Assembly: GCA_016201795.1 (NCBI GenBank)
Contig: JACQCF010000004.1
Span: 10,117-74,116 of the forward strand
DNA length: 64,000 nucleotides
Direction of reading: 5' to 3'
From: Candidatus Omnitrophota bacterium
Lineage (GTDB): Bacteria; Omnitrophota; Gorgyraeia; Zapsychrales; Fredricksoniimonadaceae
Positions 5,295 to 45,154 of this stretch are shown in pieces. Position numbers and translations under genes: made by a program. Under the pieces are notes generated by a model, which was not told the origin of the DNA, did no database searches, and was given only the letters and a program-made list of their open reading frames with translations. The first letter of the stretch is position 1. Every line of letters starts with the position of its first letter.

Positions 5295-8264
5295 ATGTCT
5301 CTTTTTTCTTTAACTAGTTTGCTGTTATCTATTTTATGTGGACTATTAGCAGTTTATATCTTTTTTAGTTCAAAAGAAACACTATACAAATTATGGAGTT
5401 TATTTAATGGAGTAGTTTGTCTCTGGGGTTTATTTCTATTCTTAGCAAGCCTCTCAAGAATAGAATCCGAGTCTTTAATTTTTTGGAAATTCTCACTTCT
5501 TGCACCAAGCCTGATGCCTTCCATATTGCTTCGATTTATAAATGCATTGACAGATAAAGATAATAAAAATTTTAAGAAATTGTGTGATGTTTATGCCGCT
5601 ATTTCTGTCATTCTAATTTTAGAAACCAATCTCTTTATAAAGAACGGATCTTTCTACTTTGATACTTTTTATTATATTAAATCGACTAAAGCGATGTCTA
5701 TTTGGCTTATATTTTTTGTTTTGTCTATTTGTAAAATTCTATGGAATTTATTTGAATTTACTAGAAATGAAAAAGGCTTAAAGAGTACTCAAGCTACGTA
5801 TATATTTTGGGGTATGTCGGTTGGATTTCTGGGAGGACTTTCTGTTGCTTTGCCAAGTTATGGTTTCAAAATTTTTCCGATTGGGCATATTCTTGTTTCT
5901 GTTTATGCAGCAACAGTCACCTTTGCTATAAAAAGAGAATTTATAGATATGAAATTATCACTTATAAAATTATTAATACCTTTTCTTATAGTGATTTCAG
6001 CCGTTGTTGGCTATTGTTTAACAAATTTTCATCTAAATTTATTTGCTTTGGCTGGTCTGCTTTTAGGATCTGCATGCTTTACTTTAGCTTATGTAATTCT
6101 TGCTTATGCCAATCAAAGGATGCATCACATATGGGCAATATTTAATGTTTGTATTGGTATTTGGGGTGCTGGAACCTTTTTTGTTGGAGTTTCAAATAAG
6201 CCAACCATAGCTTTAATTGCGTGGAAAATTGCGTACATAGGAGTTCTATTGTTACCTGTGCTTTTTTACCACATGATATACATTTTTTGTGACTTAAAAA
6301 ATAAGAAATTTTTAACCTTTGCGTATGCTCAGGTTATTTTTGTCCTTTTAGTTAATATTTTTACAAATCAATTTATAGGAAGGTTAGAGTATGTTTTTAA
6401 CTCTTTTTATTACCATCGTGTAACGAGTGTTTATTTATTTTTCTTTGTTATATGGGTGACAGTAGCAATTAATACCTTTTTTAGGTTGTATAGGTTCATA
6501 AAGACCTCAGAAGGACTAAAAAGAACGCAGGCTCTTTACTTATTTTGGGGAATGTTGTTAGGTTTTGCTGGAGGTACTACCGTTGTGGCTCCAGCTTTCG
6601 GTATCCCTATTTATCCATACGGTCATTTCTTTATATGTATTTATGCAGCAATATGTACTTATGCAATTTTTAGATATCAAGTGTTGGATATCAGAGTTGC
6701 TATAACACGCTTAGGGGTTTTTGTTCTTGTATATTCTTTAGTTTTAGGGGTTCCATTTGGTTTAATTATATGGGGAAAGTTATGGTTATTTAAACTGATG
6801 GGAGAAAATTGGTTCTGGGCTCCAATGTCAACCTTATTGATATTGGCGACTGCTGGGCCATTTATGTATATCTATTTTCAGAGCAGGGCAGAAGAACAGA
6901 TTTTAAAAGAAGAAAGAAGAATCCAGAGCTTGATACAGAAAACTTCCATTGGGATGGTTGCAATCAGGGATTTAAATAAGCTCTTAAAAGTAATAATTGA
7001 TGTCTTAGGAAAGAATTTACAGCTTGAACATATTTCTGTTTATTTGTTCGACCCAAATGAAAATATATATAACCAGAAAGCTTCGGATAAAATTGAGGAG
7101 GAAGGCTTTGTTTTAGAACATGATGATCTTCTGGTCCAAGAATTAAAAAAGAGAAAATCCCCTCTTTATTATGAGGAAATAAACCATCTGCTTCATAATC
7201 AAAAAGACAGTAACGGTGAGCTGAAAGCGCTTGTCGATCGCATGCAGAAATTATCGGCAAGCGTCATTGTCCCGGCAAGCAAAGAAGATATTTTGTTGGC
7301 TTTTATTGTATTGGGAAAAAGAGGCAAAAAAGAAGTTTACTCACCGGAACTGCTGGATGTTCTGGGGGTGGTTGGCAATGAAGCGGCGCTGGCCATAGAA
7401 AACGCCATCTTTTATGAGGAATCGGGTAAGGACTGGTCCGAGAGGGCGCATGACGCCCGATTAAAAATGATGGGAGCCATGGGGTCCGGCATTGCCCACC
7501 AGATTAACAACAAATTTCATGCTATTGGCTTTCAATTAAATTATTTGAAGGAATTATCAGAAGTGTCAGATTTGACGAAAATGACACCGGATGATCTTAG
7601 AAAATCACAGCAGGAACTCAAGGATGAAATCGGAAAAATCCTCACAGAAATCGACCGATCCGTGGAAATAGTCCAGGCCATTAAAAACTACGCCAAAAGG
7701 ACGGGGGCCGAGCCCCAGGTTACGTCATTCAAGGAAGTGGTGACAGGCGCCAAACACCTCGCGAAAATGATCCGCAAAGACAATGATGTGGAATATGAAC
7801 TTATTGAGGATTATCCCGAAAACGTGCTTCTATGGGTCAATTTTTCCATGCTTCAGGACGTTTTTGTCAATGCCTTTGATAATAGCCGCGACGCCTTAAT
7901 CTTGAAGAAATACCGCCTTGGAAAAGACGCGCAGAAGCTCGAGGAATACAAGCCCAAGATAACCGTATCCGGGAGGGCCAACACAACCATGTTTGATTTT
8001 GTCATAGAAGACAACGGCATGGGCATTGAAAAACATCATTTAGAAGAAGGCCAGGGAGTCAACGTCATGTATTTTACGACCAAAGGGGCTGTCAAGGGGA
8101 CCGGCATGGGAATCGCCATGATGCGCCAGTTTGCCAAACACAATAGGGGAGGCTTGAAAATAGAATCCGAGTATGGTCAGTGGACAAGAATAACCATTTC
8201 CTTACCCCTGGCGACCCCGGAACAAATAAAAGGCGGCAGCAATGAACCCAAAAACGGCCGTTGA
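5295..8264 (+). CDS. Sensor histidine kinase with ~450-aa duplicated polytopic membrane sensor, GAF-like domain, HisKA H-box and HATPase_c
   Basis: About 14 predicted TM helices in two homologous modules (LKSTQATYIFWGMSVGFLGG... / LKRTQALYLFWGMLLGFAGG...). H-box GSGIAHQINNKFHAI. G1/G2 boxes EDNGMGIE ... GTGMGIAMM at the C-terminus. Confidence 0.8.
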   Translation: MSLFSLTSLLLSILCGLLAVYIFFSSKETLYKLWSLFNGVVCLWGLFLFLASLSRIESESLIFWKFSLLAPSLMPSILLRFINALTDKDNKNFKKLCDVYAAISVILILETNLFIKNGSFYFDTFYYIKSTKAMSIWLIFFVLSICKILWNLFEFTRNEKGLKSTQATYIFWGMSVGFLGGLSVALPSYGFKIFPIGHILVSVYAATVTFAIKREFIDMKLSLIKLLIPFLIVISAVVGYCLTNFHLNLFALAGLLLGSACFTLAYVILAYANQRMHHIWAIFNVCIGIWGAGTFFVGVSNKPTIALIAWKIAYIGVLLLPVLFYHMIYIFCDLKNKKFLTFAYAQVIFVLLVNIFTNQFIGRLEYVFNSFYYHRVTSVYLFFFVIWVTVAINTFFRLYRFIKTSEGLKRTQALYLFWGMLLGFAGGTTVVAPAFGIPIYPYGHFFICIYAAICTYAIFRYQVLDIRVAITRLGVFVLVYSLVLGVPFGLIIWGKLWLFKLMGENWFWAPMSTLLILATAGPFMYIYFQSRAEEQILKEERRIQSLIQKTSIGMVAIRDLNKLLKVIIDVLGKNLQLEHISVYLFDPNENIYNQKASDKIEEEGFVLEHDDLLVQELKKRKSPLYYEEINHLLHNQKDSNGELKALVDRMQKLSASVIVPASKEDILLAFIVLGKRGKKEVYSPELLDVLGVVGNEAALAIENAIFYEESGKDWSERAHDARLKMMGAMGSGIAHQINNKFHAIGFQLNYLKELSEVSDLTKMTPDDLRKSQQELKDEIGKILTEIDRSVEIVQAIKNYAKRTGAEPQVTSFKEVVTGAKHLAKMIRKDNDVEYELIEDYPENVLLWVNFSMLQDVFVNAFDNSRDALILKKYRLGKDAQKLEEYKPKITVSGRANTTMFDFVIEDNGMGIEKHHLEEGQGVNVMYFTTKGAVKGTGMGIAMMRQFAKHNRGGLKIESEYGQWTRITISLPLATPEQIKGGSNEPKNGR

Positions 8265-8307
8265 AGCAAGCGCTGGGGTGAATTTTCAAGAAAGGACATA
8301 AGATCAA

Positions 8308-8685
8308 ATGAAGAATATCAAGATTGCCATCGTTGAGGATGAGGAGGGCGCGCGCAAGTCCATTGTCAGGATACTCAACCTTAAAGGATATAACCATATT
8401 CTGGAAGCCTCCCGGGGCAAGGAAGCCATAGCCATGATAGAGAAGGAAAAGCCTGACTTGGTGTTTCTGGATATCAAACTGGCTGATGAGGTAAGCGGTA
8501 TGGAGGTATTGGAAAGAAGCAGAACGGTTTCACCGGCTACAAGGGTGATTATGATGTCGGCCTATCAGGAGGAGCATGCTCAACAATCCAAAGAATTAGG
8601 GGCTTACGGGTTTTTTAAAAAACCTATGACGAGCATTGAACCCTTCATTAAGACTATTCAAGAAATAGCCGAGAAGCTGTCTTGA
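8308..8685 (+). CDS. Response regulator, receiver domain only (CheY-like)
   Basis: IAIVEDEE ... DLVFLDIKLAD ... MMSAYQ receiver signature. No output domain. Confidence 0.85.
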   Translation: MKNIKIAIVEDEEGARKSIVRILNLKGYNHILEASRGKEAIAMIEKEKPDLVFLDIKLADEVSGMEVLERSRTVSPATRVIMMSAYQEEHAQQSKELGAYGFFKKPMTSIEPFIKTIQEIAEKLS

Positions 8686-8686
8686 T

Positions 8687-9172
8687 ATGACCATACGTAA
8701 TAAAATCCATGATTTGGTCAATTATTATAACAAAATCAGTATGGGTTCTATCGTAACAAGAGAATTACTCTCTAGCGTCGATTACAAAAATACATCGACG
8801 GGAGAATTAGAATCGGCATTTAAAGAAGCCGTTACTAATTTGAAAATATTTGAAGATGCCATTATGGAAGCCAATAAAATCCTTCAAGAAATACAAACAT
8901 TTATCAAAAATCAAACACGGTGTAAAACAAATTTCCCGCCGGAAGTCAAAGATTGGCATGACAAACTATATCACGCTGCCTTCCTCAGCAGGAAAGCATT
9001 GCTTGAAAGTAGTTTAACCGAACTTTCTGAAGCTCAAGTTAAGGAAACCGTCTCTCAAGCCATAGAAATCCAGAACAAAATCGGAGAATACGTCATTAAG
9101 GCGGATGAGGTTATCGAAAAAGCCAAAAAAGTTATTTATAGGGAACTTGCGGGAGAAACGGAAATTCCTTAA
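8687..9172 (+). CDS. Hypothetical all-helical protein embedded among receiver genes
   Basis: 161-aa ORF, start overlaps the upstream stop (TGATATG). No recognisable motif. Confidence 0.5.
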   Translation: MTIRNKIHDLVNYYNKISMGSIVTRELLSSVDYKNTSTGELESAFKEAVTNLKIFEDAIMEANKILQEIQTFIKNQTRCKTNFPPEVKDWHDKLYHAAFLSRKALLESSLTELSEAQVKETVSQAIEIQNKIGEYVIKADEVIEKAKKVIYRELAGETEIP

Positions 9173-9201
9173 ATGATAGAAATTTATAAAAAAGGATAGA
9201 T

Positions 9202-9597
9202 ATGCCGAAACTCTTGGTTATTGATGATGATAAGGAAACTTGCGAGTACATCAAAGAATTCTTTGAGCATAGAAAATACACTGTTTTTGCCGCCGATTCA
9301 GGACCAAAGGGTCTTGCCCTTATCAAACAGCAAGAACCCGACCTGGTTTTATTGGATGTAAATATGGAAGGAATCAATGGCCTTGAAACCTTGAAGCAGA
9401 TTAAAGACAAATATCCAGAAATGGCTGTCATGATGGTGACCGTGGCTTCCGATGATGACACCCGAAAGACAGCCCAAACGCTTGGCGCCGATGACTTTAT
9501 TCGAAAGCCGATCCACGGCGACTATTTGGAAGGAACCGTGCTTCTTAAAGTGGCGGCCTTGATCCGTGAAAGGAAAAGGAAGAATGCCCATACCTAA
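9202..9597 (+). CDS. Response regulator, receiver domain only
   Basis: LLVIDDDKE ... DLVLLDVNMEG ... MMVTV ... K receiver signature. Confidence 0.85.
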   Translation: MPKLLVIDDDKETCEYIKEFFEHRKYTVFAADSGPKGLALIKQQEPDLVLLDVNMEGINGLETLKQIKDKYPEMAVMMVTVASDDDTRKTAQTLGADDFIRKPIHGDYLEGTVLLKVAALIRERKRKNAHT

Positions 9598-9976
9598 TAT
9601 TCTTATCGTTGATGATGAGCAGGACATCCGCAAGCGCATTTCTGACCATTTAAGGAAGCGCATGGAGTGTCATATTATAGAAGCCGCCAATGGCTATGAA
9701 GCGCTGGAAGAATTCCAAAAAGACCAAATTGATATCATATTATTGGATATGAAAATGCCCGGAATAAGCGGTACCGAGGTCATCAAGAAAGCCAGGGAGA
9801 AATCCAATATCCCTATCATTGTCATTAGCGGTTTGGAGGGGGCGGCTATTTCCCGGCATTTGGAAGAATGCGGCGTGGATGAGTATATTACCAAGCCTTT
9901 TTCTTTAAAAGTGGTGCAGGAGAAAGTTGTTGAAAGGTTAAAAAAGTGCGGAAAATATTTTCCCAAACAGCCTTAA
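9584..9976 (+). CDS. Response regulator, receiver domain only
   Basis: ILIVDDEQD ... IILLDMKMPG ... IVISG receiver signature. ATG at 9584 is preceded by a purine-rich RBS (AGGAAAAGGAAG); the ORF track used an upstream GTG at 9566. Confidence 0.8.
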   Translation: MPIPNILIVDDEQDIRKRISDHLRKRMECHIIEAANGYEALEEFQKDQIDIILLDMKMPGISGTEVIKKAREKSNIPIIVISGLEGAAISRHLEECGVDEYITKPFSLKVVQEKVVERLKKCGKYFPKQP

Positions 9977-10530
9977 AAGATATACTTAGGGTTTTGAACA
10001 AGGAGACATTCGGCTTTTCGGCCGGTGGGATTTTCAAAGTAATGCCAGTGTGTACTGTGAAAAGAAAAGCTTTCCCCTTTCCTTACGATATGCCTTTCCT
10101 GGCCATTTTCGGTTGTGACGATACAGGCTAGCTCGCCGCTTAACCCGTAAATCCACTTCAAAAAATCGTTCTTTTCGGCCGGGTCCTGTTCCGGGGCTGT
10201 TTTAGCGCCCGCCAAGAGGGTCAATTTGGCTGGCAAAAAGGGCAGGTTATTGACTTCAAATTCCAGCCAAGCTTTTTTATTATAATTGAAACGGGTGACT
10301 TTTTCTTCCTGATCAGTCCCTTCCCTAATATCTTTGGGAGTTTGCCCTAGAGCCGCCGCGATTTGATGCAGGGTGGTTTCCCTTAGCTGGGTTTGACCCG
10401 AGAGGGTACGAAGAAGGGTTAGATAGGTTATGGCATTTTCTTCAAAGAGATTCACAATCTCCTTATGAAGCTGGGTGATTGTCCAGCCTTTTTCTTTAAG
10501 CATTAAGTTGATTTTTTTGTATATTTTCAT
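9973..10530 (-). CDS. XRE-family HTH transcriptional regulator with C-terminal cupin domain
   Basis: Only convincing minus-strand gene. N-terminal HTH (LMLKEKGWTITQLHKEI...) and a C-terminal cupin-like beta-barrel region with His residues. Divergent from an AT-rich region carrying palindromes. Confidence 0.8.
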   Translation of the reverse strand: MKIYKKINLMLKEKGWTITQLHKEIVNLFEENAITYLTLLRTLSGQTQLRETTLHQIAAALGQTPKDIREGTDQEEKVTRFNYNKKAWLEFEVNNLPFLPAKLTLLAGAKTAPEQDPAEKNDFLKWIYGLSGELACIVTTENGQERHIVRKGESFSFHSTHWHYFENPTGRKAECLLVQNPKYIF

Positions 10531-10573
10531 AGTGTTTGCATTCTACCTTAAGACAGAAGTCCTGTCAATGAAA

Positions 10574-10612
10574 TTATATCATTTTTTAAATTAGTTTGTA
10601 ACTTATGATATA
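10574..10612. promoter_or_regulatory. Putative operator copy 1: 9-bp inverted repeat TTATATCAT-N21-ATGATATAA
   Basis: Seen directly. Spacer shares CATTTTTTAA..TTTG motif with copy 2. Confidence 0.5.
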
Positions 10613-10671
10613 AAATTTTTATTTTTTCTACATAATAAGTCATAAATACTTACTTATGAATAACTTATAAA

Positions 10672-10710
10672 ATATATCATTTTTTAACATTAATTTGACA
10701 AATGATATAT
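10672..10710. promoter_or_regulatory. Putative operator copy 2: perfect 9-bp inverted repeat ATATATCAT-N21-ATGATATAT, overlapping a TTGACA -35-like hexamer
   Basis: Seen directly, about 100 bp from copy 1, between the divergent XRE/cupin regulator and the + strand small ORFs. Confidence 0.5.
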
Positions 10711-10749
10711 TATCATGTTACACTTGCATTAGATAGGAGGAAACAGGTT

Positions 10750-10917
10750 ATGTTCTTAGGAATGTTCCATAAAATGATAATAGCTAAAACCATCAGCCCG
10801 TGTTTTTTATTAACAACCCTTTTTAGCAAAGACCACAGGCAAGAAAAGGAACGTATGAATTACGATGAAGTGCCTGGGGATAATTTTCCTTATGTACTGA
10901 TGCTTCATTGTGAGTGA
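10750..10917 (+). CDS. Small hypothetical protein (55 aa from the RBS-supported ATG)
   Basis: AGGAGG at 10735-10740, 9 nt before the ATG. No homology recognised. Confidence 0.25.
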   Translation: MFLGMFHKMIIAKTISPCFLLTTLFSKDHRQEKERMNYDEVPGDNFPYVLMLHCE

Positions 10918-10926
10918 GAGAAATGT

Positions 10927-11022
10927 ATGGCTAAAGTTATCTGTGTAAAATGCAAAGATACTGGTGGTTATACAGCCTCCCCTGATTATACACGCTGCCG
11001 ATGTGGAGGAAGGCGGTCATAG
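10927..11022 (+). CDS. 31-aa putative zinc-ribbon peptide (MAKVICVKCKDTGGYTASPDYTRCRCGGRRS)
   Basis: CxxC ... CxC spacing typical of small zinc ribbons. Below the ORF-track length cutoff. Weak RBS. Confidence 0.3.
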   Translation: MAKVICVKCKDTGGYTASPDYTRCRCGGRRS

Positions 11023-11025
11023 AGG

Positions 11026-11295
11026 ATGATGATGGGGGTAACGCAACGAGAGGAGGCAGCGATCATGAGAGCGCTCTTAATACTCAAAGGCAGCAAAACT
11101 TCTGAGAAATTAAGGATCATCGTCAAGCTGAATCAGAAGGATTTAAAAGACAGGGTGATTACCTTATTGGAAGAAAACAAGGACCGTGAAGCTTTCGATA
11201 TCTTGTATAAAGAAGCCCAAGTAGAGACGTATCTTGCTCCCGGCGAAAGGATACCGATTAGACCCGTGGTCACCTTAAGCGAAGAACCGCTTTAA
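11026..11295 (+). CDS. Hypothetical protein (89 aa)
   Basis: ORF between the regulator and the fourth receiver gene. No motif recognised. Confidence 0.45.
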   Translation: MMMGVTQREEAAIMRALLILKGSKTSEKLRIIVKLNQKDLKDRVITLLEENKDREAFDILYKEAQVETYLAPGERIPIRPVVTLSEEPL

Positions 11296-11376
11296 TATAC
11301 CCAGAGGGTCTCTTACTTACAGGGTATAACAGAAAGTGTTATTACAAATTGAGGTATATGGTATACTTTCTCTACT

Positions 11377-12012
11377 ATGCGTATGCGAATAGAAAAGCCC
11401 AAATTGCTCATCGTTGACGATGAAATGGATATTTGCACCCATGCCCAGAATTATTTCGGCAGACGGGGCTTCATCGTCTCAACAACCGGAAGCGGTTTGG
11501 AGGCCCTTTCCATGATTAAAGCTTCCAGGCCGGATCTGGTACTTTTGGATCTCACTTTGGATGATTTAGACGGAAAAGAAGTCCTTGAACGGCTGCGTAA
11601 AGAAGATAAAGAGACAAAAATCATTGTGATTTCAGGCCAGGAGAACTTAACAGATATTGATAAACTCTATAGTCTGGGGATAAGCGGCTATTATGTCAAA
11701 CCTATAACCCTGGAGAACCAGGCAAAGCTGGTTTACGATGCGCTGGGCCTTCGGCAGCTTGAGAAAACTGTTCCCCAAGCGAATAAGGTTTCCAAATATA
11801 AAATTCCCAAAGCGGGTATTATCCATCAACTTTCCAATAAGTTAAGTATCATTCGAGGGAATTGCGAGGGTTTTGTTTTAGATTATCAAGACGGTTTATA
11901 TAAAGATAAAACCAGCGATGAATTGCTTAAGATGTCTATTGAAATCATGAAAAATGTGCAGCATGGCGTCGATGGTGCCATGGAAATGGTCGATAAAATC
12001 AAAAAAGAATAA
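11377..12012 (+). CDS. Response regulator receiver fused to a C-terminal H-box/DHp-like segment (no ATPase domain)
   Basis: Receiver LLIVDDEMD ... DLVLLDLTLDD ... IVISG. The C-terminal AGIIHQLSNKLSIIRGNCEGF resembles the kinase H-box GIAHQINNKF of the upstream HK. Confidence 0.75.
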   Translation: MRMRIEKPKLLIVDDEMDICTHAQNYFGRRGFIVSTTGSGLEALSMIKASRPDLVLLDLTLDDLDGKEVLERLRKEDKETKIIVISGQENLTDIDKLYSLGISGYYVKPITLENQAKLVYDALGLRQLEKTVPQANKVSKYKIPKAGIIHQLSNKLSIIRGNCEGFVLDYQDGLYKDKTSDELLKMSIEIMKNVQHGVDGAMEMVDKIKKE

Positions 12013-12015
12013 TGT

Positions 12016-12696
12016 ATGACGCGCTCTTGCCCAGAACCCCAGCTCATTGGCCAACTCCTACTTAGAGAAGGCCTCATTCGCCTTGAAGCCCTGGAGAAAG
12101 CCTTGCTGGAGCAGGAAAAATCCGGCCTGCCTTTGGGGGAGGTCCTCATCAAGTCAGGTGACATTACGCAAGAGGCCTTTTATGAAGTTTTATCCCGGCA
12201 GACGGGCCTTGCATACGTGCGATTAAAAGATTTGACTGTGACTCCTGCCATCCTCGCTGAAATTCCGGCCAAATTCGCCTGCCATTATGCTTTCATGCCT
12301 GTGGGCATGGAAGATTCTACCGTGACGGTTGCCGTGCCCCGTCTTTTGGACATACAAACACAGGATGATATCAGGCTTTTGTTAAAAAAGAACATCAAAA
12401 TGGTCCTGGCGTCGCCTAAGGAAATTGCCGAGGCCATAAAGACATATTATGGCGTGGGCGCACAAACCATGGAAAAGATATCACCGCAGCTTGCGCAGGA
12501 GAAATTCACTAGCGTCCAGTCCCAGGAAACCCAGGACCTTGTGGCCTCCAGTGAAGACGCCTCCATCATTCAATTTGTCAATCAAATTCTGCTGCAAGCC
12601 TACCACGACAGGGCCACCGACATCCATATTGAGCCTTATGAGAATGAGCTTGCCGTCAGGTACAGAATAGACCAAGGTCAAAATAGGCCAGGATGA
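12016..12696 (+). CDS. gspE: T2SS/T4P assembly ATPase GspE/PilB, N-terminal fragment (N1E domain up to the start of the N2 domain)
   Basis: GspII_E_N-like N-terminus. Ends ...DIHIEPYENELAVRYRIDQGQNRPG* where a canonical GspE continues. Confidence 0.75.
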   Translation: MTRSCPEPQLIGQLLLREGLIRLEALEKALLEQEKSGLPLGEVLIKSGDITQEAFYEVLSRQTGLAYVRLKDLTVTPAILAEIPAKFACHYAFMPVGMEDSTVTVAVPRLLDIQTQDDIRLLLKKNIKMVLASPKEIAEAIKTYYGVGAQTMEKISPQLAQEKFTSVQSQETQDLVASSEDASIIQFVNQILLQAYHDRATDIHIEPYENELAVRYRIDQGQNRPG

Positions 12697-12697
12697 G

Positions 12698-13609
12698 GTG
12701 GACTTGCGCGTCTCCATTTTACCGACTCCTTTTGGCGAAAGTGTTGTCATCAGGGTCCTTTCCAAGCATGTCTCTTTGAATCTTGAAAATTTAGGCCTGT
12801 TACCGAGGGATTTGGAGATTTTGGAAAGAATGATTAAAAAGCCGCATGGCATTATTTTTGTGACAGGCCCTACGGGAAGCGGGAAGACCACAACCCTTTA
12901 TGCCGTGTTAAGCCAGATTAAAGGAGCGGACAAGAAAATTATCACGATAGAGGACCCCATCGAATATCAAATCAAAGGGGTCACCCAGATTCAGGTGCAG
13001 CCCAAAATTGACCTGACTTTTGCCAGCGCCTTGCGCTCCATGCTGCGCCATGACCCGGATGTCATGATGGTGGGGGAAGTCAGGGACTATGAAACCGCCG
13101 AGATTACCATTCGGGTAGCACTGACCGGCCATCTGGTGTTCTCAACACTGCATACCAATAACGCGGCTGGCGGCGTCACGCGGCTCATTGATATGGGGGT
13201 AGAGCCGTTTCTGGTGTCATCGGCGGTGGAATGTTTTATTGCCCAGCGGCTGGTGAGGGTCTTGTGCGAGCGTTGCAAAAAAGAGACAAAACTTACCGAA
13301 GAGGTCTTGCGAGAGCTTGGGGTCACGAACTTGGATTTGTCCAAAGTCAGGATATACGAACCAGCGGGATGCGAGTCCTGCCGGCACACAGGGTACAAGG
13401 GCAGGACGGCTATTTACGAGATGTTGGTTGTGAATGAGGCCATCAAAGAGTTGATCTTAAAAAGAGCTTCCTCGGATCAGATTAAAACCAAAGCATTGGC
13501 CCTTGGCATGAGAACGCTGCGCCAGGACGGATGGCAGAAGATTGTCAAAGGCCTCACGACCGCCGCTGAGGTCATCAGGGTCACCCAGCAGGAAGATCTG
13601 GTGGAATAA
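12698..13609 (+). CDS. gspE: T2SS/T4P assembly ATPase GspE/PilB, C-terminal ATPase fragment (Walker A GPTGSGKTTT, Asp box, His box, tetracysteine motif)
   Basis: The +1 frame immediately upstream reads TKVKIGQDEVDLRVSILPTPFGE, matching the conserved region just before Walker A. About 33 codons are missing relative to canonical GspE. Confidence 0.8.
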   Translation: MDLRVSILPTPFGESVVIRVLSKHVSLNLENLGLLPRDLEILERMIKKPHGIIFVTGPTGSGKTTTLYAVLSQIKGADKKIITIEDPIEYQIKGVTQIQVQPKIDLTFASALRSMLRHDPDVMMVGEVRDYETAEITIRVALTGHLVFSTLHTNNAAGGVTRLIDMGVEPFLVSSAVECFIAQRLVRVLCERCKKETKLTEEVLRELGVTNLDLSKVRIYEPAGCESCRHTGYKGRTAIYEMLVVNEAIKELILKRASSDQIKTKALALGMRTLRQDGWQKIVKGLTTAAEVIRVTQQEDLVE

Positions 13610-13612
13610 TTT

Positions 13613-14830
13613 ATGCCCACATTTATCTACGAGGCCAGGAAAAATCCCAAAGAGCTCGTCAAAGACACCCTGGTTGCCGATAACAGGACTACCGCTATTC
13701 AAAAGATAGGCAAAATGGGTTATTATCCTCTTTCAATTTATGAAGAGCATAAGATTTCCCAAGACACGACGGATATTGGCGCTTATTTCTTAGGCAGGAT
13801 AAGCTTGAAAGAGGTCACGGATTTTACCAGGCAGCTTTCCGATCTGCTGGAATCCGGTCTTACCATTGCCAAGGCGTTGGATATCCTGCGTATCCAGACG
13901 GAAAACAGGAAATTAAAGAATATTATCTTGGACATTGAGGATTTTTGTGTTGCCGGAAATCCTCTTTCCAGCGCTTTAGGGCGGCATCCGCGCGTATTCT
14001 CTAAACTTTACGTCAGCATGGTGCGTTCCGGGGAAGCCGGCGGGGCCCTGGAGGGCGTCCTCAAAAGACTCTCGGATTTGAATGAAAAGCAGCTTGAGAT
14101 ACAAACCAAAGTTACAACCGCCTTGGCCTATCCCATTTTAATGTCTGTGGTGGGCTCTGCGACTATCGTGGTCTTGTTGACTTTTGTCATGCCCAAAATG
14201 ATGGTCATGTTCAATGATTTTGGCCAGGCGCTTCCTTTGCCTACGCAAATTTTATTAAGTTTAAGCCTCCTGATAGCCCATGACTGGTGGCTTCTTGTCG
14301 TGGGACTGCTTATTGTCATCATAAGCGTCATGAAAATATCCAGCACTCAGAAGGGAAGGCTGGCCGTGGATTATCTGATATTAAAATTTCCGGTTGCAGG
14401 AAGAGTCGTCAAGAAAATAGAGATAGCCAGGTTTACCAGAACACTGGGCATCCTTTTAAATAACGGCGTTCCCATGCTGGAGGCCCTGAAAGTTGTCTCG
14501 GCCACCATGAATAACGCCGTTATGCGCCAGGAGATTACAAAAGCTTCCGCGGCCGTCAAAGAAGGTACTAGCCTGGCCAGGGGATTTTCCAATAGCAAGG
14601 TCATTCCTCTGGCTACTGTCCATATGATCGCCATTGGTGAAGAAGGCGGACATCTGGAAACTTCCTTATTGAAAATCGCTGAAGCCGGGGAACGGGAATC
14701 CGATGAGGCCATCAAAATAGCGGTGTCGTTGCTTGAGCCTGTTTTAATTTTAAGTTTAGGTCTGGTCGTAGGGTTTATTGTGATAGCCATGCTGTTGCCG
14801 ATATTTGAAATCAATTTTCTCATACGATAA
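13613..14830 (+). CDS. gspF: Type II secretion system inner-membrane platform protein GspF/PilC
   Basis: 405 aa with two GspF repeats and 3 TM segments. Position directly after gspE. Confidence 0.9.
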   Translation: MPTFIYEARKNPKELVKDTLVADNRTTAIQKIGKMGYYPLSIYEEHKISQDTTDIGAYFLGRISLKEVTDFTRQLSDLLESGLTIAKALDILRIQTENRKLKNIILDIEDFCVAGNPLSSALGRHPRVFSKLYVSMVRSGEAGGALEGVLKRLSDLNEKQLEIQTKVTTALAYPILMSVVGSATIVVLLTFVMPKMMVMFNDFGQALPLPTQILLSLSLLIAHDWWLLVVGLLIVIISVMKISSTQKGRLAVDYLILKFPVAGRVVKKIEIARFTRTLGILLNNGVPMLEALKVVSATMNNAVMRQEITKASAAVKEGTSLARGFSNSKVIPLATVHMIAIGEEGGHLETSLLKIAEAGERESDEAIKIAVSLLEPVLILSLGLVVGFIVIAMLLPIFEINFLIR

Positions 14831-14856
14831 CCTCTTTTTTAAAGGAAAACTCGCTT

Positions 14857-15270
14857 ATGAAACGTTTTCAACACAAAGGCTTTACTTTAGTGGAGCTTAT
14901 GCTTGTTGTTGTCATCATCGGTATTTTGGTAGGGATGGTCGTTCCCCGTATTGCTGGCCGGGCGGAACAGGCCAGGCAGGCAGCCGCCAAAGCCGATATA
15001 GAGGTCAATATCGCCTCAGCCCTGGATTTGTATAACGTCGACAACGGCTTTTATCCTGAAACCCTGGACGAATTTCTCACCAACACCAAAAGTTTGCCCG
15101 CCTGGAAGGGGCCCTATTTGAAGAAAAAGCCCATCGACCCGTGGGGTACCCCCTATGACTATAAATATTTTCCCGAGGACAACAGCTACACTTTGCGTTC
15201 CTTTGGCAAGGACCGTCAGGAAGGCGCCAGCAATGTCATCAGCAGTGCTGACCAGCCCAAAGCGCCTTGA
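14857..15270 (+). CDS. gspG: Major pseudopilin GspG
   Basis: Prepilin leader + GFTLVELMLVVVIIGIL. Conserved GspG core (NGFYPETLDEF..W.GPY). Confidence 0.9.
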   Translation: MKRFQHKGFTLVELMLVVVIIGILVGMVVPRIAGRAEQARQAAAKADIEVNIASALDLYNVDNGFYPETLDEFLTNTKSLPAWKGPYLKKKPIDPWGTPYDYKYFPEDNSYTLRSFGKDRQEGASNVISSADQPKAP

Positions 15271-15730
15271 GGCTGGTTTTACCCTCATCGAACTGGTCCT
15301 TGTGGCAAGCATCCTGCTGGTTCTGGCAGGGCTTTCTGTTCCTCGATTTCAAAGGACTTTTTTGAGTTTATCCGTGAAAGATTCCGCTTTTAACCTGGCC
15401 AAGTTGATAACCCTCGCCCGTCAGGAAGCGGTGTGGGAAAGGAAAAATTTTAAAATCAGTTTTAATGTGGTAAAGGGCCAGTACCAGCTTTGGGAAATCG
15501 ATGAATCCAGCGTGCCTTTGAGTTACAAGAAGGTTGCAGGCAGGATGGGGAAATTATTCGCCCTGCCGCGGGGAGTGTTTCTTAAAAGTTCAAGAAACGA
15601 GACCGTTTTTTACCCCGATGGCCATTGCGATAGTGTTCGTGTGGATATGACCGACAAAGAGGGTTTGGGCCGCAGGCTGGACATCCAAAGCCCCAGCTGC
15701 CGCAGCAGCGTGAAAGACCTTGTCCCATGA
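15233..15730 (+). CDS. Minor pseudopilin GspH-like
   Basis: Leader MSSAVLTSPKRLEAG/FTLIELVLV. Start taken at the first ATG before the prepilin motif; overlaps the gspG 3' end. Confidence 0.6.
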   Translation: MSSAVLTSPKRLEAGFTLIELVLVASILLVLAGLSVPRFQRTFLSLSVKDSAFNLAKLITLARQEAVWERKNFKISFNVVKGQYQLWEIDESSVPLSYKKVAGRMGKLFALPRGVFLKSSRNETVFYPDGHCDSVRVDMTDKEGLGRRLDIQSPSCRSSVKDLVP

Positions 15731-16083
15731 CGCCCAAAAAAGGATTTTTATTACTGGAAGTTATCGTAAGCCTTGTGATTTTGACAGGCGGTTTGTTATT
15801 TGTAACGCAGGCGTATTTTGCCGCTTTAAAAACCGCCCAGCGAACGCGCGAGAATTTTCAACTTGGTCTTTGGCTGGAAGAAGGCATGTTTGGCTTTGAA
15901 GAAAAAGGGCAGGTCAAGGAAGGCCTCTGGCAGGGAGAGTTGGAAGGCCGCAAGGATGTGCTTTGGAAGATGAAGGCCGTGGCGACCCAAGCTTCGGATT
16001 TACACACGGTAAATTTAAGTGTTTTTGACCGCCATACACCACAACAAGAGCGCTCGTTATGGACTTTTTTAAACAAATCTTAA
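15727..16083 (+). CDS. Minor pseudopilin GspI-like
   Basis: MTPKKG/FLLLEVIVSLVIL prepilin-type N-terminus. 118 aa. Confidence 0.6.
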   Translation: MTPKKGFLLLEVIVSLVILTGGLLFVTQAYFAALKTAQRTRENFQLGLWLEEGMFGFEEKGQVKEGLWQGELEGRKDVLWKMKAVATQASDLHTVNLSVFDRHTPQQERSLWTFLNKS

Positions 16084-16724
16084 ATTACAAATTTAGAACA
16101 GACATTGCTAAGAACAAAAGCGGTAAGATATTTTCCGCGGGGTTTACCTTTATAGAACTGCTGGTGGCCTTGACCATATTTTCTATTATTGCGGTAAGCG
16201 TCTATGCTGTTTTTCACGCGGGAGTTAAAATGTGGTTTAAGACTAACATCCTTACCGACGATACCCAGACGAAGAGGGTTTTCTTTAATACCATTTCCCG
16301 GGACCTTAAAAACGCAATTTCTTACACTAAGGGTGGTGTAAATTTTCAAGGGGCACCCCAAAGGATCTCGTTTATGACGACAATGGAAGTCGCCGGTCAA
16401 GACGCGCCGCTTCACTGGGAACTGGCAAAAGTGGTTTATGTCTTTGACAAAGACTCTCAATCAGTCAAAAGGCTGGTGGCCACAAAACAGGAAGGTCTGG
16501 ATGAGGCAAAAGCCAGAAGCGAAGAATTTTTTCAAAACATCAAGGAGAAAGATTTTGGCTTCACCTATTGCTATAAAGACCCCTACAGCGTCGGGGAAGT
16601 GACGTATCAATGGCAAGACGCCTGGCATGAGCAAGCCAAAATCCCCCGCGGGGTCAGAGTAAATTTGGGGGAATTAAGGAAAGTCATTTTACTACCCACG
16701 GGGGAATTGGGGACTCAACAATGA
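16059..16724 (+). CDS. Minor pseudopilin GspJ-like
   Basis: AGFTFIELLVALTIF prepilin motif after a long leader. Exact start uncertain. Confidence 0.6.
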   Translation: MDFFKQILNYKFRTDIAKNKSGKIFSAGFTFIELLVALTIFSIIAVSVYAVFHAGVKMWFKTNILTDDTQTKRVFFNTISRDLKNAISYTKGGVNFQGAPQRISFMTTMEVAGQDAPLHWELAKVVYVFDKDSQSVKRLVATKQEGLDEAKARSEEFFQNIKEKDFGFTYCYKDPYSVGEVTYQWQDAWHEQAKIPRGVRVNLGELRKVILLPTGELGTQQ

Positions 16725-17770
16725 CCTATCCTAAACCCAAAACCGCCAGCATTCTCATTGCTTCTGTCTGGATTCTGGCCCTATTGTCCCTGCTGGCCTT
16801 CGGGATAGGTTTTCGTGTGGCCATTGAGGCGCGTTTGGATAAATACGAGGCGGATAGCCTCAAAGCCCTGTATTTGGCCAAGGCCGCGGTTGTCAAATCC
16901 CGGGAATTGTTATCCAATGACAGTAAAACCTATGATTCGCTCTATGAAAACGGAATCATGTTATCCAACCAGAATGACCTCAATGACCTTTTTATGAATA
17001 TCAAAATTCTTGGGAGTCAGGAAGTTTCCGCCAGGGTCAGCTACACCAACGGCGATCTAAAAAACTACCCCGGTATGATGGATGAAGAGCGTAAAATCAA
17101 CATCAACAAGGCTTCGCAAGAAGTTTTAAGGAATCTCATTGGGGTCTTAAGCGATAAACACAAGATGTCTTTGGGAACAACGACACCGCAGGAGCTGGCC
17201 TCATCAATCGTATTCTGGCGTTCCCAGGCGCCTGGGACGCAAGAGAACTACTATGAGTCCCTGGATAATCCCTATCCTTGCAAACACGGCGATTTCAGCG
17301 CCATTGAGGAACTTTTGCTGGTCCAGGGAATCACTTTGGATATGTTGAGCGTTCTTCAAGATTATATCACCGTCTTTGGCCCGGATGAGGCTAGTATCAA
17401 CATCAACACAGCCCCCAAAGAAGTGCTGATGGCCTATGGCATGCCTGAGGCGCTTGCCGATAAAATCCTCAAGTACCGCAATGGGCCCGGCGGCGAAGCG
17501 ACAGAGAAAGACGGCGGTGTATTTTTAGATATTAACGATATCGAAACCACGTTAAAGACGAACCTGCCGGAGGGCTTAAGCGAGGAGGAAGTCCTGATTT
17601 TGGGGGACCTTAAAAGCAGCCGGCGCTTTACAACCGCCTCAAACTATTTTACAATTGAGGCCACGGGCATTGTCCATGCCTCGAAGATGGAAAGAAAGAT
17701 AGTCTGCGTTGTGCAAAAAGACCCCGTCAAAAAAGGAGCCACGAAATTAATCGCCTATCGGGAATATTAA
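16721..17770 (+). CDS. gspK: Minor pseudopilin GspK-like
   Basis: N-terminal TM anchor (ILIASVWILALLSLLAFGIGF). ~350 aa. Position after I/J. Confidence 0.75.
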   Translation: MTYPKPKTASILIASVWILALLSLLAFGIGFRVAIEARLDKYEADSLKALYLAKAAVVKSRELLSNDSKTYDSLYENGIMLSNQNDLNDLFMNIKILGSQEVSARVSYTNGDLKNYPGMMDEERKININKASQEVLRNLIGVLSDKHKMSLGTTTPQELASSIVFWRSQAPGTQENYYESLDNPYPCKHGDFSAIEELLLVQGITLDMLSVLQDYITVFGPDEASININTAPKEVLMAYGMPEALADKILKYRNGPGGEATEKDGGVFLDINDIETTLKTNLPEGLSEEEVLILGDLKSSRRFTTASNYFTIEATGIVHASKMERKIVCVVQKDPVKKGATKLIAYREY

Positions 17771-17805
17771 AAAGTTTTTCCAATACACTTCTTTCCAGGG
17801 GCCAG

Positions 17806-19224
17806 ATTATCGCGCTGGAACTTGGGGAAGATTCACTGAAAGTTTGCCTTGCGCGGGTATCGGGGGACGGGCGAGAGGTCGTCTTTTTAAAGGAACATAA
17901 ATTTTCCACAACCGAAGATGAGGCGATTGTCCATGACATCAAAGACTTTCTGAAACCTTACAATGTTTCAGCGTGCAGGGTTTTCGTCAATATTCCCCGC
18001 CATCTTGCGATCACAAGATTCCTGAAACTCCCTTCTACCAATCCCCAGGAAATTGCCAGCATCGTCAGGATAGAAGCCCTCAAGTATATCCCTTACACCG
18101 AAGAAGAAGTGGTCTCTTCCTTTAGAATCATTGACACATTCGAAGACGGCTATGCCAATGTTTTATTGGCGACAGTACCGATTGCGAGCGTCCAGAGAAT
18201 TCTGGACATTTTTCAAACGGCGGGGCTGGTCCACATCGAAGGTGTTTGTCTGGGTTGCGAAACTTTACTGTTATGGCACACCTTGGCCGCAACAAGCGTG
18301 GCAAAAAGCAGCCTGCTTCTTGCCAACGTAGATACGCACCAGATGAATATCGATATCATCCATCAAGGCAAGCTTGCCTTCACAAGAGGAATTCCCTCTA
18401 ACACGGGACATCCGTTGACGAAGGAAAAGATCGTCGAAGAACTTAAAGTGTCTCTTGACGCCTATCAAAAAGAAACGCATAACACCGTAGAACGGATGGC
18501 GCTCACCGGTTGTGGTGATATCCTTAAAACATGCGAAGATGCCGTTAGTCATGCTTTTGCTTTCCCGGTTACGGTCACAGGCCAACTGGAGCATGTGGCG
18601 GTTAAAGAGAGCGCCTCGAAAGATTCTTTTGACACTTCCTTTGTGGAACTGCTGGGCCTTGCTTTGAATTTTCAGGATACGCAGATTAATCTTTTGCCGG
18701 GCGATATGTTTTTAAAAAACCGTCTCAAGCAGATTAAAAGCCATGTTTCGTTGACCCTGGCTCTTGTGGGTCTTATGACGCTTTTAGGCATTGGCCTTGC
18801 CTTTAAGAAACTCAACGACAAAACCGCCTATCTGGCTTATCTGAAGACCGAAATCGCCAGCATGGATTCCCAGGTCGCCCAGACAAAGAAAACGTTAAAA
18901 TACCTTACGGTCCTTAAAGAGCAAATGCTTGAGAAACCCCTGGCCATAGACTTTATTAGCGAAATTTATAAACTCTCGCCTAGCGGTATCACGCTTAACG
19001 GGATGGATTATGAGGACGGCAAGACCCTGACTTTGAAAGGAACCGCGTCTTCTTTGAGTGAAGCGCTCAAATACGTCGCTATTCTGGAAGGTTCGCAGTA
19101 TTTTCAAGATGTCAAAATCAAAAACGCCGTTCAGCAAAAGGGCGGGGGTAGCGAATACGCGGCTTTTGAGATTCTTTGCGCTTTGTCGAGGGAGGGGCAC
19201 GATGCCGTTAAAAAATCTGAATAA
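17806..19224 (+). CDS. GspL-like protein: PilM-like cytoplasmic actin-fold domain fused to a PilN-like TM/periplasmic domain; no canonical start codon
   Basis: Frame is open from 17659 and encodes PilM-like IIALELGEDSLKVCLARVSGDGREV ... IEALKYIPYTEEEVVSSFRII, but has no ATG/GTG/TTG before 18109. Start placed at ATT 17806 as a guess. The ORF track starts at ATG 18109. Confidence 0.6.
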   Translation: MIALELGEDSLKVCLARVSGDGREVVFLKEHKFSTTEDEAIVHDIKDFLKPYNVSACRVFVNIPRHLAITRFLKLPSTNPQEIASIVRIEALKYIPYTEEEVVSSFRIIDTFEDGYANVLLATVPIASVQRILDIFQTAGLVHIEGVCLGCETLLLWHTLAATSVAKSSLLLANVDTHQMNIDIIHQGKLAFTRGIPSNTGHPLTKEKIVEELKVSLDAYQKETHNTVERMALTGCGDILKTCEDAVSHAFAFPVTVTGQLEHVAVKESASKDSFDTSFVELLGLALNFQDTQINLLPGDMFLKNRLKQIKSHVSLTLALVGLMTLLGIGLAFKKLNDKTAYLAYLKTEIASMDSQVAQTKKTLKYLTVLKEQMLEKPLAIDFISEIYKLSPSGITLNGMDYEDGKTLTLKGTASSLSEALKYVAILEGSQYFQDVKIKNAVQQKGGGSEYAAFEILCALSREGHDAVKKSE

Positions 19225-19732
19225 AAGAGAGCGTCTAATGGCTTCCGTAACGTTTTGGCTGGCGCTTGTAGCGGTGGTGTATGGTTTTCTGATTGAGCCG
19301 CTGGTCGGCCGCTGGCAAAGCCTTGAGAGTGAGATTGTCTCCCAAAAGGATATCTTAAAAAAAGATTTGAGAATCCTCGAAAAACGAAAAATTATTGAGG
19401 CCGCTTACGTTGATATTGTCAAGGAGGCACAGTCCAGGGAACCGCAGGGTGCTGTAGATATCATGACGAGTGTGGAAACCCTTTCCAGGAACGATTCCTG
19501 CCTTCTTGTGAATATCAAGCCCTTAGGGATACAAAAAAGGGGATCCTGGCAGGAGGTCTCTATCGAAATCACCGCCGAGGCCAACGCGCAGCAATTTTCT
19601 AAATTTTTGTACGACCTGGAAAGTTCTAAAACAGGGATGTTAAGAATCAAACATTTCAGCCTAAATCCTGAATCCGCCAAGCCCGGTATTTTAAAGGGTG
19701 TTTTTATCCTGAATCGAATCCTGTTGGATTAA
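19202..19732 (+). CDS. GspM/PilO-like bitopic assembly protein
   Basis: Single TM (VTFWLALVAVVYGFLI) and a periplasmic domain. Start at the ATG overlapping the upstream stop; alternative ATG at 19238. Confidence 0.55.
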   Translation: MPLKNLNKRERLMASVTFWLALVAVVYGFLIEPLVGRWQSLESEIVSQKDILKKDLRILEKRKIIEAAYVDIVKEAQSREPQGAVDIMTSVETLSRNDSCLLVNIKPLGIQKRGSWQEVSIEITAEANAQQFSKFLYDLESSKTGMLRIKHFSLNPESAKPGILKGVFILNRILLD

Positions 19733-19900
19733 CAAGCTATTTGAGATTTCTATTATCTTATAAGTTATTTATTTACAATATGTTATATTCGATTATATCT
19801 TTAATTGGCATTTTAGGTGATTACATGTTATATTTTATCATAACATCACCCATGAGTTGAATATTCCTCAATTTCAACACATTATAAAGCAAGGTAAACT

Positions 19901-20395
19901 ATGGAAAGCGGCCATCATTTAGCCAAATTTCAGCTATGGCAGCTTACTAATAAATTCTTGGCAGTATCTTTGGTTCTTTTATCTTTGTATTTTGTGTATG
20001 GAATTTTTTTCCTCAAGCCTTCTTACACACTCCAAGGGTCTGTCAAAAGCGAAGTGGATCCGCTGAAGGATACTAACATGAATAATCAGCCTTTTGCGCT
20101 ACAGAGAAAAGACTACTCTTATTATTTTGACAAAATCTCCGGCAGGGAATTGTTTGGCCAAACCCAGCAGACACTTTCCGTTGACACAGCCACAGTAGAT
20201 GAAGCGACGGATAACTTAAAGCTTGTGGGAATCATCGCGGGGAAGAGTCCGCAGGCTGTTGTGGAAGACAAGAAAAATGAAAAGACGTATTATCTCAATA
20301 AAGGGGACTCTTTTGAGGGTTTGAACGTGCAGGAGATTCTAGATAACAAAGTGATTCTTGACCATGAAGGAAAGAAAATGGCGCTTTCTTTGTAA
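19901..20395 (+). CDS. GspC/PilP-like secretin-interacting protein
   Basis: N-terminal TM. C-terminal LVGIIAG..PQAVVEDKKNEKTYYLNKGDSFEGLNVQEILDNKVIL, HR-domain-like. Immediately upstream of the secretin. Confidence 0.55.
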   Translation: MESGHHLAKFQLWQLTNKFLAVSLVLLSLYFVYGIFFLKPSYTLQGSVKSEVDPLKDTNMNNQPFALQRKDYSYYFDKISGRELFGQTQQTLSVDTATVDEATDNLKLVGIIAGKSPQAVVEDKKNEKTYYLNKGDSFEGLNVQEILDNKVILDHEGKKMALSL

Positions 20396-20412
20396 AAGGA
20401 ACAATTGACCTT

Positions 20413-22362
20413 ATGAAAACAAAACTCATAAGTATTTTGACGGCGGGGACGTTGTTTGTTGTGTCTATGTTGGGGCCTCTTCGGGTCTCGGGCCAGGAAG
20501 AGCCTCATCCCGCTTCCAATCTCAAGCAAGCGCCTGCGCAAATCCAGTCCGATAGAATCTCGCTGGATTTAAAAGGCATGGATGTGGTGGAAGTCATCAA
20601 GACCCTGGCTTCCCAGGGTAACTTGAATGTCGTCATAGGCGATGATGTCAAAGGCCGCGTGACGATTTTTTTAAAAAGCGTTAAGCTTATGGATGCCTTT
20701 GAGATTATCCTTGTGGCCAGCGACTTGGCCTATGACAGGCGGGGGGACATTATCTATGTCATGTCCCAGAGGGAATACGAGGACACCTATGGAGAGCGCT
20801 TTGCCGACAAAACAACGGCCAAAATCATTCAACTGAAATTTGCCAAAGCCGCTGAAGTGGCCAAGGCGTTGAACCAGATGAAAAGCAAGATCGGCAAAAT
20901 CATCGTGGATGAAGGTTCCAATACCATTGTCATGATGGACAGTCCTGTTTTAGTGACCCGCATGCAGGAGACGGCCGGCAAACTGGATTCACCCACCATA
21001 ACGAAAGTCTTCAGTCTCACCTACGCGAAAGCGGAAGATTTAAAGACCAAAATTTCCGAGAGCCTCACCCCCGGCATTGGCAGTATGCAGATTGATGAAA
21101 GGACCAATCAGGTTGTGGTCACCGATCTGGAGGGAAAGATGGCCAAAATCCAGCAGATGATAACAGCTTTTGATGAAAAATTGCAGCAAGTTTTTATCGA
21201 AGCCAAGATTGTGCAGATTACCCTCAATGACCAGTACAAAATGGGTGTGGACTGGAACAGTTTCCTTAATAAATTGCATAAAAACAGCATCAACAGTGCC
21301 TTTGGGCTGGCAGCCAGGGATACTCTTAATCCCGGCGCACAACTGGCCATCGGTTCCGGGGACCCCAACTCTGATTACAACATTGTTGTGCAGGCGTTAA
21401 AATCCATTGGCGATGCCAATCTGCTTTCCAGTCCCAGAATCACCGTCCTGAATAACCAGGAGGCAAAAATCTTGGTGGGTAAAACCCAGCCCTACGCGAT
21501 TAATACCGTGACCCAGGGAACAGCCACGACCACGACGGCCACGAACTTGCAGTTTATCGATATCGGGGTCAAACTCTATGTCACACCCGTGGTCAATCGG
21601 GATGGTTTTATTACCATGAAAATCAAGCCCGAGGTCAGCTCGGCCACCGACTTTTACACGTATGGCTCGCCTCCAACCACAGTTCCCATCGTGGAAACCA
21701 CCCAGGCGGAAACCAGTGTGACGGTCAAAGACGGCACCACTCTGATTATCGCGGGTCTTATCAAGGACGACAGAAACAGCCAGGTGGACAAGGTCCCGTT
21801 TTTGGGTGACCTTCCCTTGATTGGAAACGCCTTTCGAAAGACCGGTAAATCCATCAACAAGCAGGAACTGGTGGTTTTTTTGACTCCTCATATCGTGACC
21901 GGAGACAATGATTATGTGGTCGCGCCACCTAGTCCGCCCACTGGCGAAAAGAAATTCACCATGCCAGAGGATTTTGTTTTTGAACGCAGGGACAGGGTGA
22001 AAATGGACCCGGGCGTATTTAAAGAGAACCCTGTTCCTCAAGCTAGGGGAAAAGCAACGTCTTTTATAACGGTGTTGCCCGCAAGCGATCAGGAGTATTA
22101 TTACGTGGTTAAAGAAAAAATAGCCCAACAGATCATAGCACCCAAAGACAAAACGCATATCCCTTTGAAAGGGAAGGTGAAGGTGCAATTTTTTCTTTCT
22201 TCCAAAGGGGAACTCTTATACGCGCCCGAGATTGCGCAGTCAAGTAATTCTTCTTTGGATGAGGCGGTCATCGCCGCGGTAGTTAAAGCTGCGCCGTATC
22301 CAGCGTCTCCCCAAAAGGGGGTAAAACAGAAACGTTTTGTGGTGGATTTTTCCTTTGAGTAA
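20413..22362 (+). CDS. gspD: Secretin GspD/PilQ with a C-terminal TonB-C-like extension
   Basis: Signal peptide and N0/N1-type domains. Secretin core (LLSSPRITVLNNQEAKILVG ... VPFLGDLPLIGNAFRK ... VVFLTPHIV). A ~150-aa tail ending KGKVKVQFFLSSKGELLYAPEIAQSSNSSLDEAVIAAVVKAAPYPASPQKGVKQKRFVVDFSF. Confidence 0.9.
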   Translation: MKTKLISILTAGTLFVVSMLGPLRVSGQEEPHPASNLKQAPAQIQSDRISLDLKGMDVVEVIKTLASQGNLNVVIGDDVKGRVTIFLKSVKLMDAFEIILVASDLAYDRRGDIIYVMSQREYEDTYGERFADKTTAKIIQLKFAKAAEVAKALNQMKSKIGKIIVDEGSNTIVMMDSPVLVTRMQETAGKLDSPTITKVFSLTYAKAEDLKTKISESLTPGIGSMQIDERTNQVVVTDLEGKMAKIQQMITAFDEKLQQVFIEAKIVQITLNDQYKMGVDWNSFLNKLHKNSINSAFGLAARDTLNPGAQLAIGSGDPNSDYNIVVQALKSIGDANLLSSPRITVLNNQEAKILVGKTQPYAINTVTQGTATTTTATNLQFIDIGVKLYVTPVVNRDGFITMKIKPEVSSATDFYTYGSPPTTVPIVETTQAETSVTVKDGTTLIIAGLIKDDRNSQVDKVPFLGDLPLIGNAFRKTGKSINKQELVVFLTPHIVTGDNDYVVAPPSPPTGEKKFTMPEDFVFERRDRVKMDPGVFKENPVPQARGKATSFITVLPASDQEYYYVVKEKIAQQIIAPKDKTHIPLKGKVKVQFFLSSKGELLYAPEIAQSSNSSLDEAVIAAVVKAAPYPASPQKGVKQKRFVVDFSFE

Positions 22363-40802: not shown

Positions 40803-40811
40803 GGATAAGCC

Positions 40812-43577: not shown

Positions 43578-43605
43578 ACAATCCAAAAAATGAAAGGGGA
43601 ATCAC

Positions 43606-43992: not shown

Positions 43993-44006
43993 GAAAGGAA
44001 GTTTTT

Positions 44007-45151: not shown

Positions 45152-45154
45152 TTT

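Follow-up and report, generated by a model that had tools for sequence, protein, structure and literature searches.

The gene for the GspE/PilB-family ATPase that heads a T2SS-like operon in Candidatus Omnitrophota contig JACQCF010000004.1 is split by a single out-of-frame deletion of 125 nt, and an intact allele of the same gene is present in the same population. These results come from a 64,000-nt stretch of the contig (GenBank assembly GCA_016201795.1), referred to here as the window. We lean slightly towards an assembly error, as opposed to a real allele, as the source of the deletion. Overall, this is an ordinary assembly error or a rare null allele, since the other assembly of the same population has the 125 bases in frame.

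gspE is split by a 125-nt deletion

Two open reading frames, ORF1 (12016-12696) and a +1-frame ORF (12671/12698-13609; ORF2), encode the two halves of one GspE/PilB-family ATPase (Table 1). ORF1 runs in frame 1 from 12016, comprises 226 aa and ends in HIEPYENELAVRYRIDQGQNRPG at a TGA stop codon. ORF2 lies in frame 2, i.e., +1 relative to ORF1, is open from 12671 to its stop codon at 13607-13609, and starts immediately after a stop with TKVKIGQDEVDLRVSILPTPFGE. Pfam searches detected an MshEN domain (68.4 bits) and T2SSE profile positions 3-44 (29.8 bits) in ORF1, and T2SSE profile positions 84-370 (361.9 bits, E = 3.6e-108) in ORF2; both ORFs pass the gathering cut-off of PF00437 (T2SSE; 24.9 bits), and approximately 39 profile positions (45-83) are absent between them. 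Continuity across PF00437, i.e., one polypeptide containing the N2 and C-terminal domains over profile positions 1-370, is broken in the window and preserved in the intact allele. When the two halves were fused and compared with solved structures, they aligned as two colinear blocks on PilB/PilF and GspE chains, with approximately 38-40 chain residues skipped; they occupy, e.g., positions 5-215 followed by 254-561 of Myxococcus PilB (3JC8). Given that both halves match the same family and are colinear, this split-gene pattern is far above chance.

The deletion takes out 41 codons plus 2 nt (residues G220-I261) and thereby causes a +1 frameshift. Its junction falls between positions 12672 and 12673, with a 1-nt (C) ambiguity, and past this point ORF1 reads seven aberrant codons before terminating. 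By tblastn, residues 1-219 of the repaired protein match 12016-12672 in frame 1 and residues 262-572 match 12674-13606 in frame 2, both at 100% identity. A preliminary description had proposed that gspE is split by an internal out-of-frame deletion with the second frame at +1, and reading frames, Pfam and tblastn confirm this; it also correctly recognized the lost segment as a part of the N2 domain ending in PQDGR. Its estimate of the size (approximately 100 nt, or 33 residues) fell short of the 125 nt measured in the alignment with Logan contig L001. When both ORFs were aligned to canonical GspE/PilB, as that description had suggested, residues were indeed missing between them, and the repaired segment aligned unbroken to Geobacter PilB and Vibrio EpsE (1P9R, E = 7.8e-48).

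The sequence around the junction offers little by way of a cause. There is no direct repeat in register and the microhomology is 1 nt; an imperfect, out-of-register similarity (GCTTGCC..CAGG..AGAAT) occurs near both ends of the deletion, and a 7-bp inverted repeat covers the left breakpoint, with similar repeats found in approximately 9% of random windows. We therefore rejected repeat collapse or simple slippage, given the 1-nt microhomology, the lack of an in-register repeat and the commonplace nature of the inverted repeat. To test for relocation, the remainder of the window was searched for the 125 nt, with zero matches.

Table 1. Features of the split gspE gene and of the operon that follows it, in window coordinates.
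Feature	Position	Strand	Evidence and remarks
gspE 5' part, codons 1-219	12016-12672	+	MshEN domain and first part of N2 domain, to ...VRYRID; Pfam, tblastn; L003 100% identical over 10749-12660
Deletion junction	12672-12673	+	lacks the 125 nt of L001 positions 21-145, ggcatcctttacgag...ccaggatggaagaat; no flanking repeat
Out-of-frame tail of ORF1 (QGQNRPG) and premature TGA (12694-12696)	12673-12696	+
gspE 3' part, +1 frame, repaired residues 262-572	12674-13609	+	end of N2 domain and C-terminal ATPase domain; T2SSE profile, tblastn; L001 100% identical over 12673-16875
AGGA (12690-12693), TGA (12694-12696), GTG (12698-12700)	12690-12700	+	possible fortuitous restart that would give a 303-aa C-terminal fragment
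gspF	13613-14830	+	TIGR02120, 388.7 bits, below cut-off (424)
gspG	14857-15270	+	T2SSG, above cut-off
Pseudopilins, H/I/J-like (three genes)	15155-16724	+	T2SSJ, 25.9, below cut-off (28)
gspK	16721-17770	+	T2SSK, above cut-off
PilM/PilN-like gspL	18109-19224	+	PilN, above cut-off
gspM-like	19058-19732	+	T2SSM, 19.3, below cut-off (27.8)
gspC-like	19901-20395	+	T2SSC, above cut-off
Secretin gspD	20413-22362	+	Secretin/Secretin_N, above cut-off

An intact allele is present in the same population

An exact-product look-up of the downstream gspF gene identified two Logan contigs, from runs SRR12113409 and SRR12113410. One of these, L001 (4,348 nt, SRR12113409), begins with 20 nt equal to window positions 12653-12672, continues with 125 extra nt, and then follows the window for 4,203 nt (12673-16875), with zero mismatches. 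The extra block is in frame and encodes 42 residues, such that the repaired protein comprises 572 aa. The preliminary description had named the recovery of approximately 100 nt as a refuting result; as regards a settled pseudogene, this has in part come about, with an independent assembly (SRR12113409) restoring the 125 nt in frame. Because these bases are restored, gspE is not a fixed pseudogene of the lineage; the gene is likewise intact in all 82 relatives examined, the remaining operon genes are undamaged, and 31.8 kb show no further change. The choice that had been posed between a pseudogene and an assembly or consensus error still stands, with its branch of a fixed, lineage-wide pseudogene disfavored by the intact contig.

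Altogether, seven Logan contigs from the two runs could be aligned with the window over 31.8 kb; they are 100% identical to it, and the gspE deletion is the sole gap. This identity indicates that the window comes from the same population as the Logan contigs, that its consensus is otherwise accurate, and that the lesion stands without divergence; very likely, the window and the contigs also share their underlying reads. The sequence shows no sign of decay beyond the gspE lesion. As no divergence accompanies it, the lesion either arose extremely recently or is not of biological origin.

The discontinuities of three assemblies fall no more than 20 nt apart: L001 starts at 12653, L003 (SRR12113410) ends at 12660, and the deletion junction of the window follows. 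With contigs of 2-12 kb, such clustering is unlikely to occur by chance, and it suggests that few solid reads support the intact path at this spot. No motif was common to the other Logan contig ends. The exact products of ORF1 (226 aa) and ORF2 (303 aa, from the GTG at 12698) had no record in the public-assembly collection searched, and the cut Logan gene products were absent from the cluster collection searched. Scans with the upstream flank returned zero matches both in the GTDB representative genomes and in the JGI metagenome contigs, and hence no further copy of either allele; a literature search for the accessions SRR12113409 and SRR12113410 gave no match.

The lost block is strongly conserved

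We compared the repaired protein with a collection of 5.8 billion proteins and with related loci. In all 120 matches listed, coverage was 89-100%, and in all but four it was at least 98%; the matches are 519-595 aa long, nearly all of approximately 570 aa, and the repaired protein aligns end to end with Omnitrophota homologues of this latter size. Those with a name among the matches listed belong to Candidatus Omnitrophota; identity reaches 79% at best. The related loci numbered 82 (two from metagenome contigs and 80 from GTDB representative genomes; best identity 74%). The lost block was found in frame, as a single match, in every one of them and is among the most conserved parts of the protein; its consensus begins ..DG.L....P.. 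and includes a near-invariant 11-residue motif. This conservation across 82 of 82 relatives points to strong purifying selection on the block.

In structural terms, the block lies within the N2 domain of PilB, at approximately positions 238-277 of the 5TSG chain. The N2 domain comprises residues 181-288 in Geobacter metallireducens PilB, and the chains of the hexamer touch one another mainly where this domain meets the C-terminal domain of the neighboring chain (PMC5424180). Since the lost block is conserved and sits inside the domain that makes this contact, the window allele is predicted to be null.

The repaired protein is a GspE/PilB-clade ATPase

The catalytic motifs are all present in the translation of ORF2, i.e., Walker A GPTGSGKT, Asp box IITIEDPIEY, DPDVMMVGEVRD, TGHLVFSTLHTN and CERC...CESC; the motif list used here (Walker A, Asp box, Walker B, His box, and the tetracysteine zinc motif of the PilB/GspE clade) is taken from PMC5424180. 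The best NCBIfam match of the repaired protein was TIGR02533 (GspE) with 617.1 bits, narrowly below the cut-off of 630.25, and the score against TIGR02538 (PilB) was 596.0 bits, below the cut-off of 675.65. Judged by these profiles, the protein is assigned to the GspE/PilB clade while passing neither equivalog threshold.

At the N-terminus, residues 11-62 score 51.3 bits against NF053729, a model of the MshE-related c-di-GMP motif (cut-off 38), and binding of c-di-GMP is predicted. Two tandem LGxxLLxxGLIxxxxLxxALxxQ-like motifs were recognized by eye in the stretch encoded by 12016-12200. On the strength of the model match and the tandem motifs, the T2SS-like motor may be regulated by c-di-GMP.

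The operon is otherwise intact

The rest of the operon (13613-22362, forward strand) is apparently intact, as the preliminary description had noted, and has the order gspF-G-H-I-J-K-L-M-C-D. Genes for C, D, F, G, K, the minor pseudopilins and L/M-like proteins are co-located, as in a T2SS operon, and a role in secretion is predicted. Two relatives, L008 and L009, share the operon order and gene lengths and encode an intact ATPase of 570 aa. No second GspE/PilB/PilT-family ATPase was found within the window at E <= 1e-3.

Several features of the operon and its surroundings were recorded in passing. The secretin carries a TonB_C/TonB_2 domain at its C-terminus, past the Secretin domain; the same fusion occurs in the operon of the relative with 74% identity (L009, 19637-21580), on which grounds the fusion appears to be a lineage feature. 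Directly upstream of the operon (5295-12012) are a 7TM-sensor histidine kinase (5295-8264) and four receiver-only response regulators (8308-8685, 9202-9597, 9566-9976 and 11377-12012), the last of which ends 4 nt before the gspE start. In L008 and L009, the upstream genes differ from this kinase/regulator set.

Further away, a large polyketide-synthase-like ORF occupies 30-5285, with acyltransferase, carrier protein, ketoreductase, dehydratase and thioesterase-like domains. Because this ORF starts with GTG at position 30 and its acyltransferase domain is matched from profile position 83 onward, the gene may extend upstream of the window. Just downstream of the operon are two RHS/YD-repeat proteins (24178-25650 and 26863-35700), one of them a giant of 2,945 aa with Ig-like domains; these are possible secreted or surface toxins. 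The region at approximately 39788-50404 contains a conjugation/type IV secretion module with a Replic_Relax-like protein, a VirB4/TraC-like ATPase (40812-43577), TrbL, TraE, CagX, TrbI, TraV and a TraG/VirD4 coupling protein (48647-50404). This region is probably an integrated conjugative element. Gene calls on Logan contig L006 add an HTH_17 gene at approximately window positions 50420-50605.

Assembly defect or real allele

We rate it as slightly better than an even chance that the gap is a local assembly defect and that the intact allele dominates in the population. The organism's gspE would then be a normal, intact gene for a 572-aa ATPase with an MshEN domain of c-di-GMP type, an N2 domain and a C-terminal ATPase domain, and its product would power the pseudopilus of the adjoining T2SS-like operon. 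The 125-nt gap would be confined to this assembly and unrepresentative of the bulk population, having its origin in assembly or library preparation and not in the cells. Two routes to it appear the most probable: the assembler may have taken a rare or chimeric read bearing the deletion, or a gap may have been wrongly closed where solid reads for the intact path were thin.

The zero-mismatch flanks of the in-frame block in L001 favor such a defect. In addition, this block is continuous with 4.2 kb of downstream sequence, which would mean that no deletion branch survived graph cleaning in SRR12113409. The lesion is the sole discrepancy over 31.8 kb and seven contigs, and the breaks of L001 and L003 within 20 nt of the junction point to local assembly difficulty. 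The presence of the block in 82 of 82 loci, with listed matches near full length, and the other operon genes, intact and syntenic with those of relatives, are further consistent with an intact gene in the organism. However, De Bruijn-graph assemblers cannot invent junctions; given 1-nt microhomology and no repeat, one or more deletion-bearing reads probably exist and could stem from a real variant. Moreover, the contig of the window is long and free of other errors, which indicates that coverage was not generally poor. The break positions themselves (12653 and 12660) fit no simple model: they agree in simple form neither with an assembly defect nor with a real allele, nor with a simple two-allele bubble.

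A strong contender, to which we give somewhat less than an even chance, is that the deletion is real and that gspE lost its function very recently, in an allele that a substantial share of the population carries beside the wild type. Cells with this allele would make an N-terminal fragment of 226 aa and at most a restart product without much of the N2 domain, and the T2SS/pseudopilus machine would be dead unless an ATPase encoded elsewhere in the genome substitutes. Speculatively, the function could have been lost by neutral drift or by selection, e.g., as an escape from pilus-using phage or predators. The lack of a repeat on which an assembly could collapse argues for this allele, in that deletion reads probably exist, as does the trustworthiness of a consensus that is identical to independent contigs over 31.8 kb; the breaks beside the site in both runs could also represent two alleles splitting low coverage. 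However, the sole independent assembly across the site (L001) is intact and shows no branch at the downstream merge point, and the exact ORF1 and ORF2 products are without record in the collection searched. Without a SNP or other lesion in 31.8 kb, the allele would have to be extremely young, and it would have lost a block that appears to be under strong purifying selection. The more specific proposition, i.e., a newly arisen null allele of a motor ATPase at appreciable frequency in an otherwise clonal wild population, possibly selected by phage or predation, is a tentative one that we regard with some doubt.

It is highly improbable that the split gene functions as it stands, either through two polypeptides that reassemble or through recoding across the frames. 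An AGGA upstream of a GTG, 1 nt past the TGA of ORF1, makes translational restart conceivable. However, the same bases (12690-12700) are plain coding sequence (GQDEV) in the intact allele, and the restart site is thus not an evolved signal; the arrangement occurs in none of the 82 relatives examined; and the DNA lacks the codons for 42 N2-domain residues, among them the near-invariant 11-residue motif, in a domain that supplies the main inter-chain contact of the PilB hexamer (PMC5424180). Because this conserved block is physically missing, recoding cannot restore gspE, and a functional split gene is effectively refuted.

Implications and comparison with known systems

For annotation, these findings are a warning: because an intact gene exists in the same population, the contig provides no ground for claiming a loss of the T2SS motor ATPase in this Omnitrophota lineage. 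If the deletion were real and frequent, it would illustrate on a small scale that loss-of-function alleles of a secretion/pilus motor can form part of the standing variation of an uncultured bacterium, which would be of modest interest and mechanistically unsurprising. Mechanistically, nothing here is new: one assembly contains a damaged copy of a gene that is well known, and the intact allele can be recovered from public reads.

Among characterized systems, GspE/EpsE ATPases (Vibrio cholerae EpsE, PDB 1P9R and 4KSR) share with the repaired protein the Pfam T2SSE domain, Walker A, Asp box, Walker B, His box and tetracysteine motifs, and the placement of gspE at the head of an operon that also contains gspF, G, J, K, C and the secretin gene D. 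The N-terminus of canonical EpsE is a GspL-binding N1 domain. In contrast, the protein described here has an MshEN/c-di-GMP-motif N-terminal domain, and the window gene further differs in lacking 125 nt and being frame-shifted. The best PDB matches overall (441-410 bits) are the type IVa pilus ATPases PilB/PilF (Geobacter 5TSG/5ZFR, Myxococcus 3JC8 and Thermus 6F8L), which resemble the repaired protein in their MshEN-type N-terminal domain, in the organization of the N2 and C-terminal domains, and in the tetracysteine motif; however, the operon here is T2SS-like, with GspC, GspK and GspJ-like genes, and not of the pilMNOPQ/pilA kind. As for the lesion itself, it resembles the frameshifted genes and local misassemblies of metagenome-assembled genomes, in that a single indel interrupts a conserved gene that is otherwise intact, and the undamaged version can be retrieved from the same reads; the sole oddity is the three clustered discontinuities.
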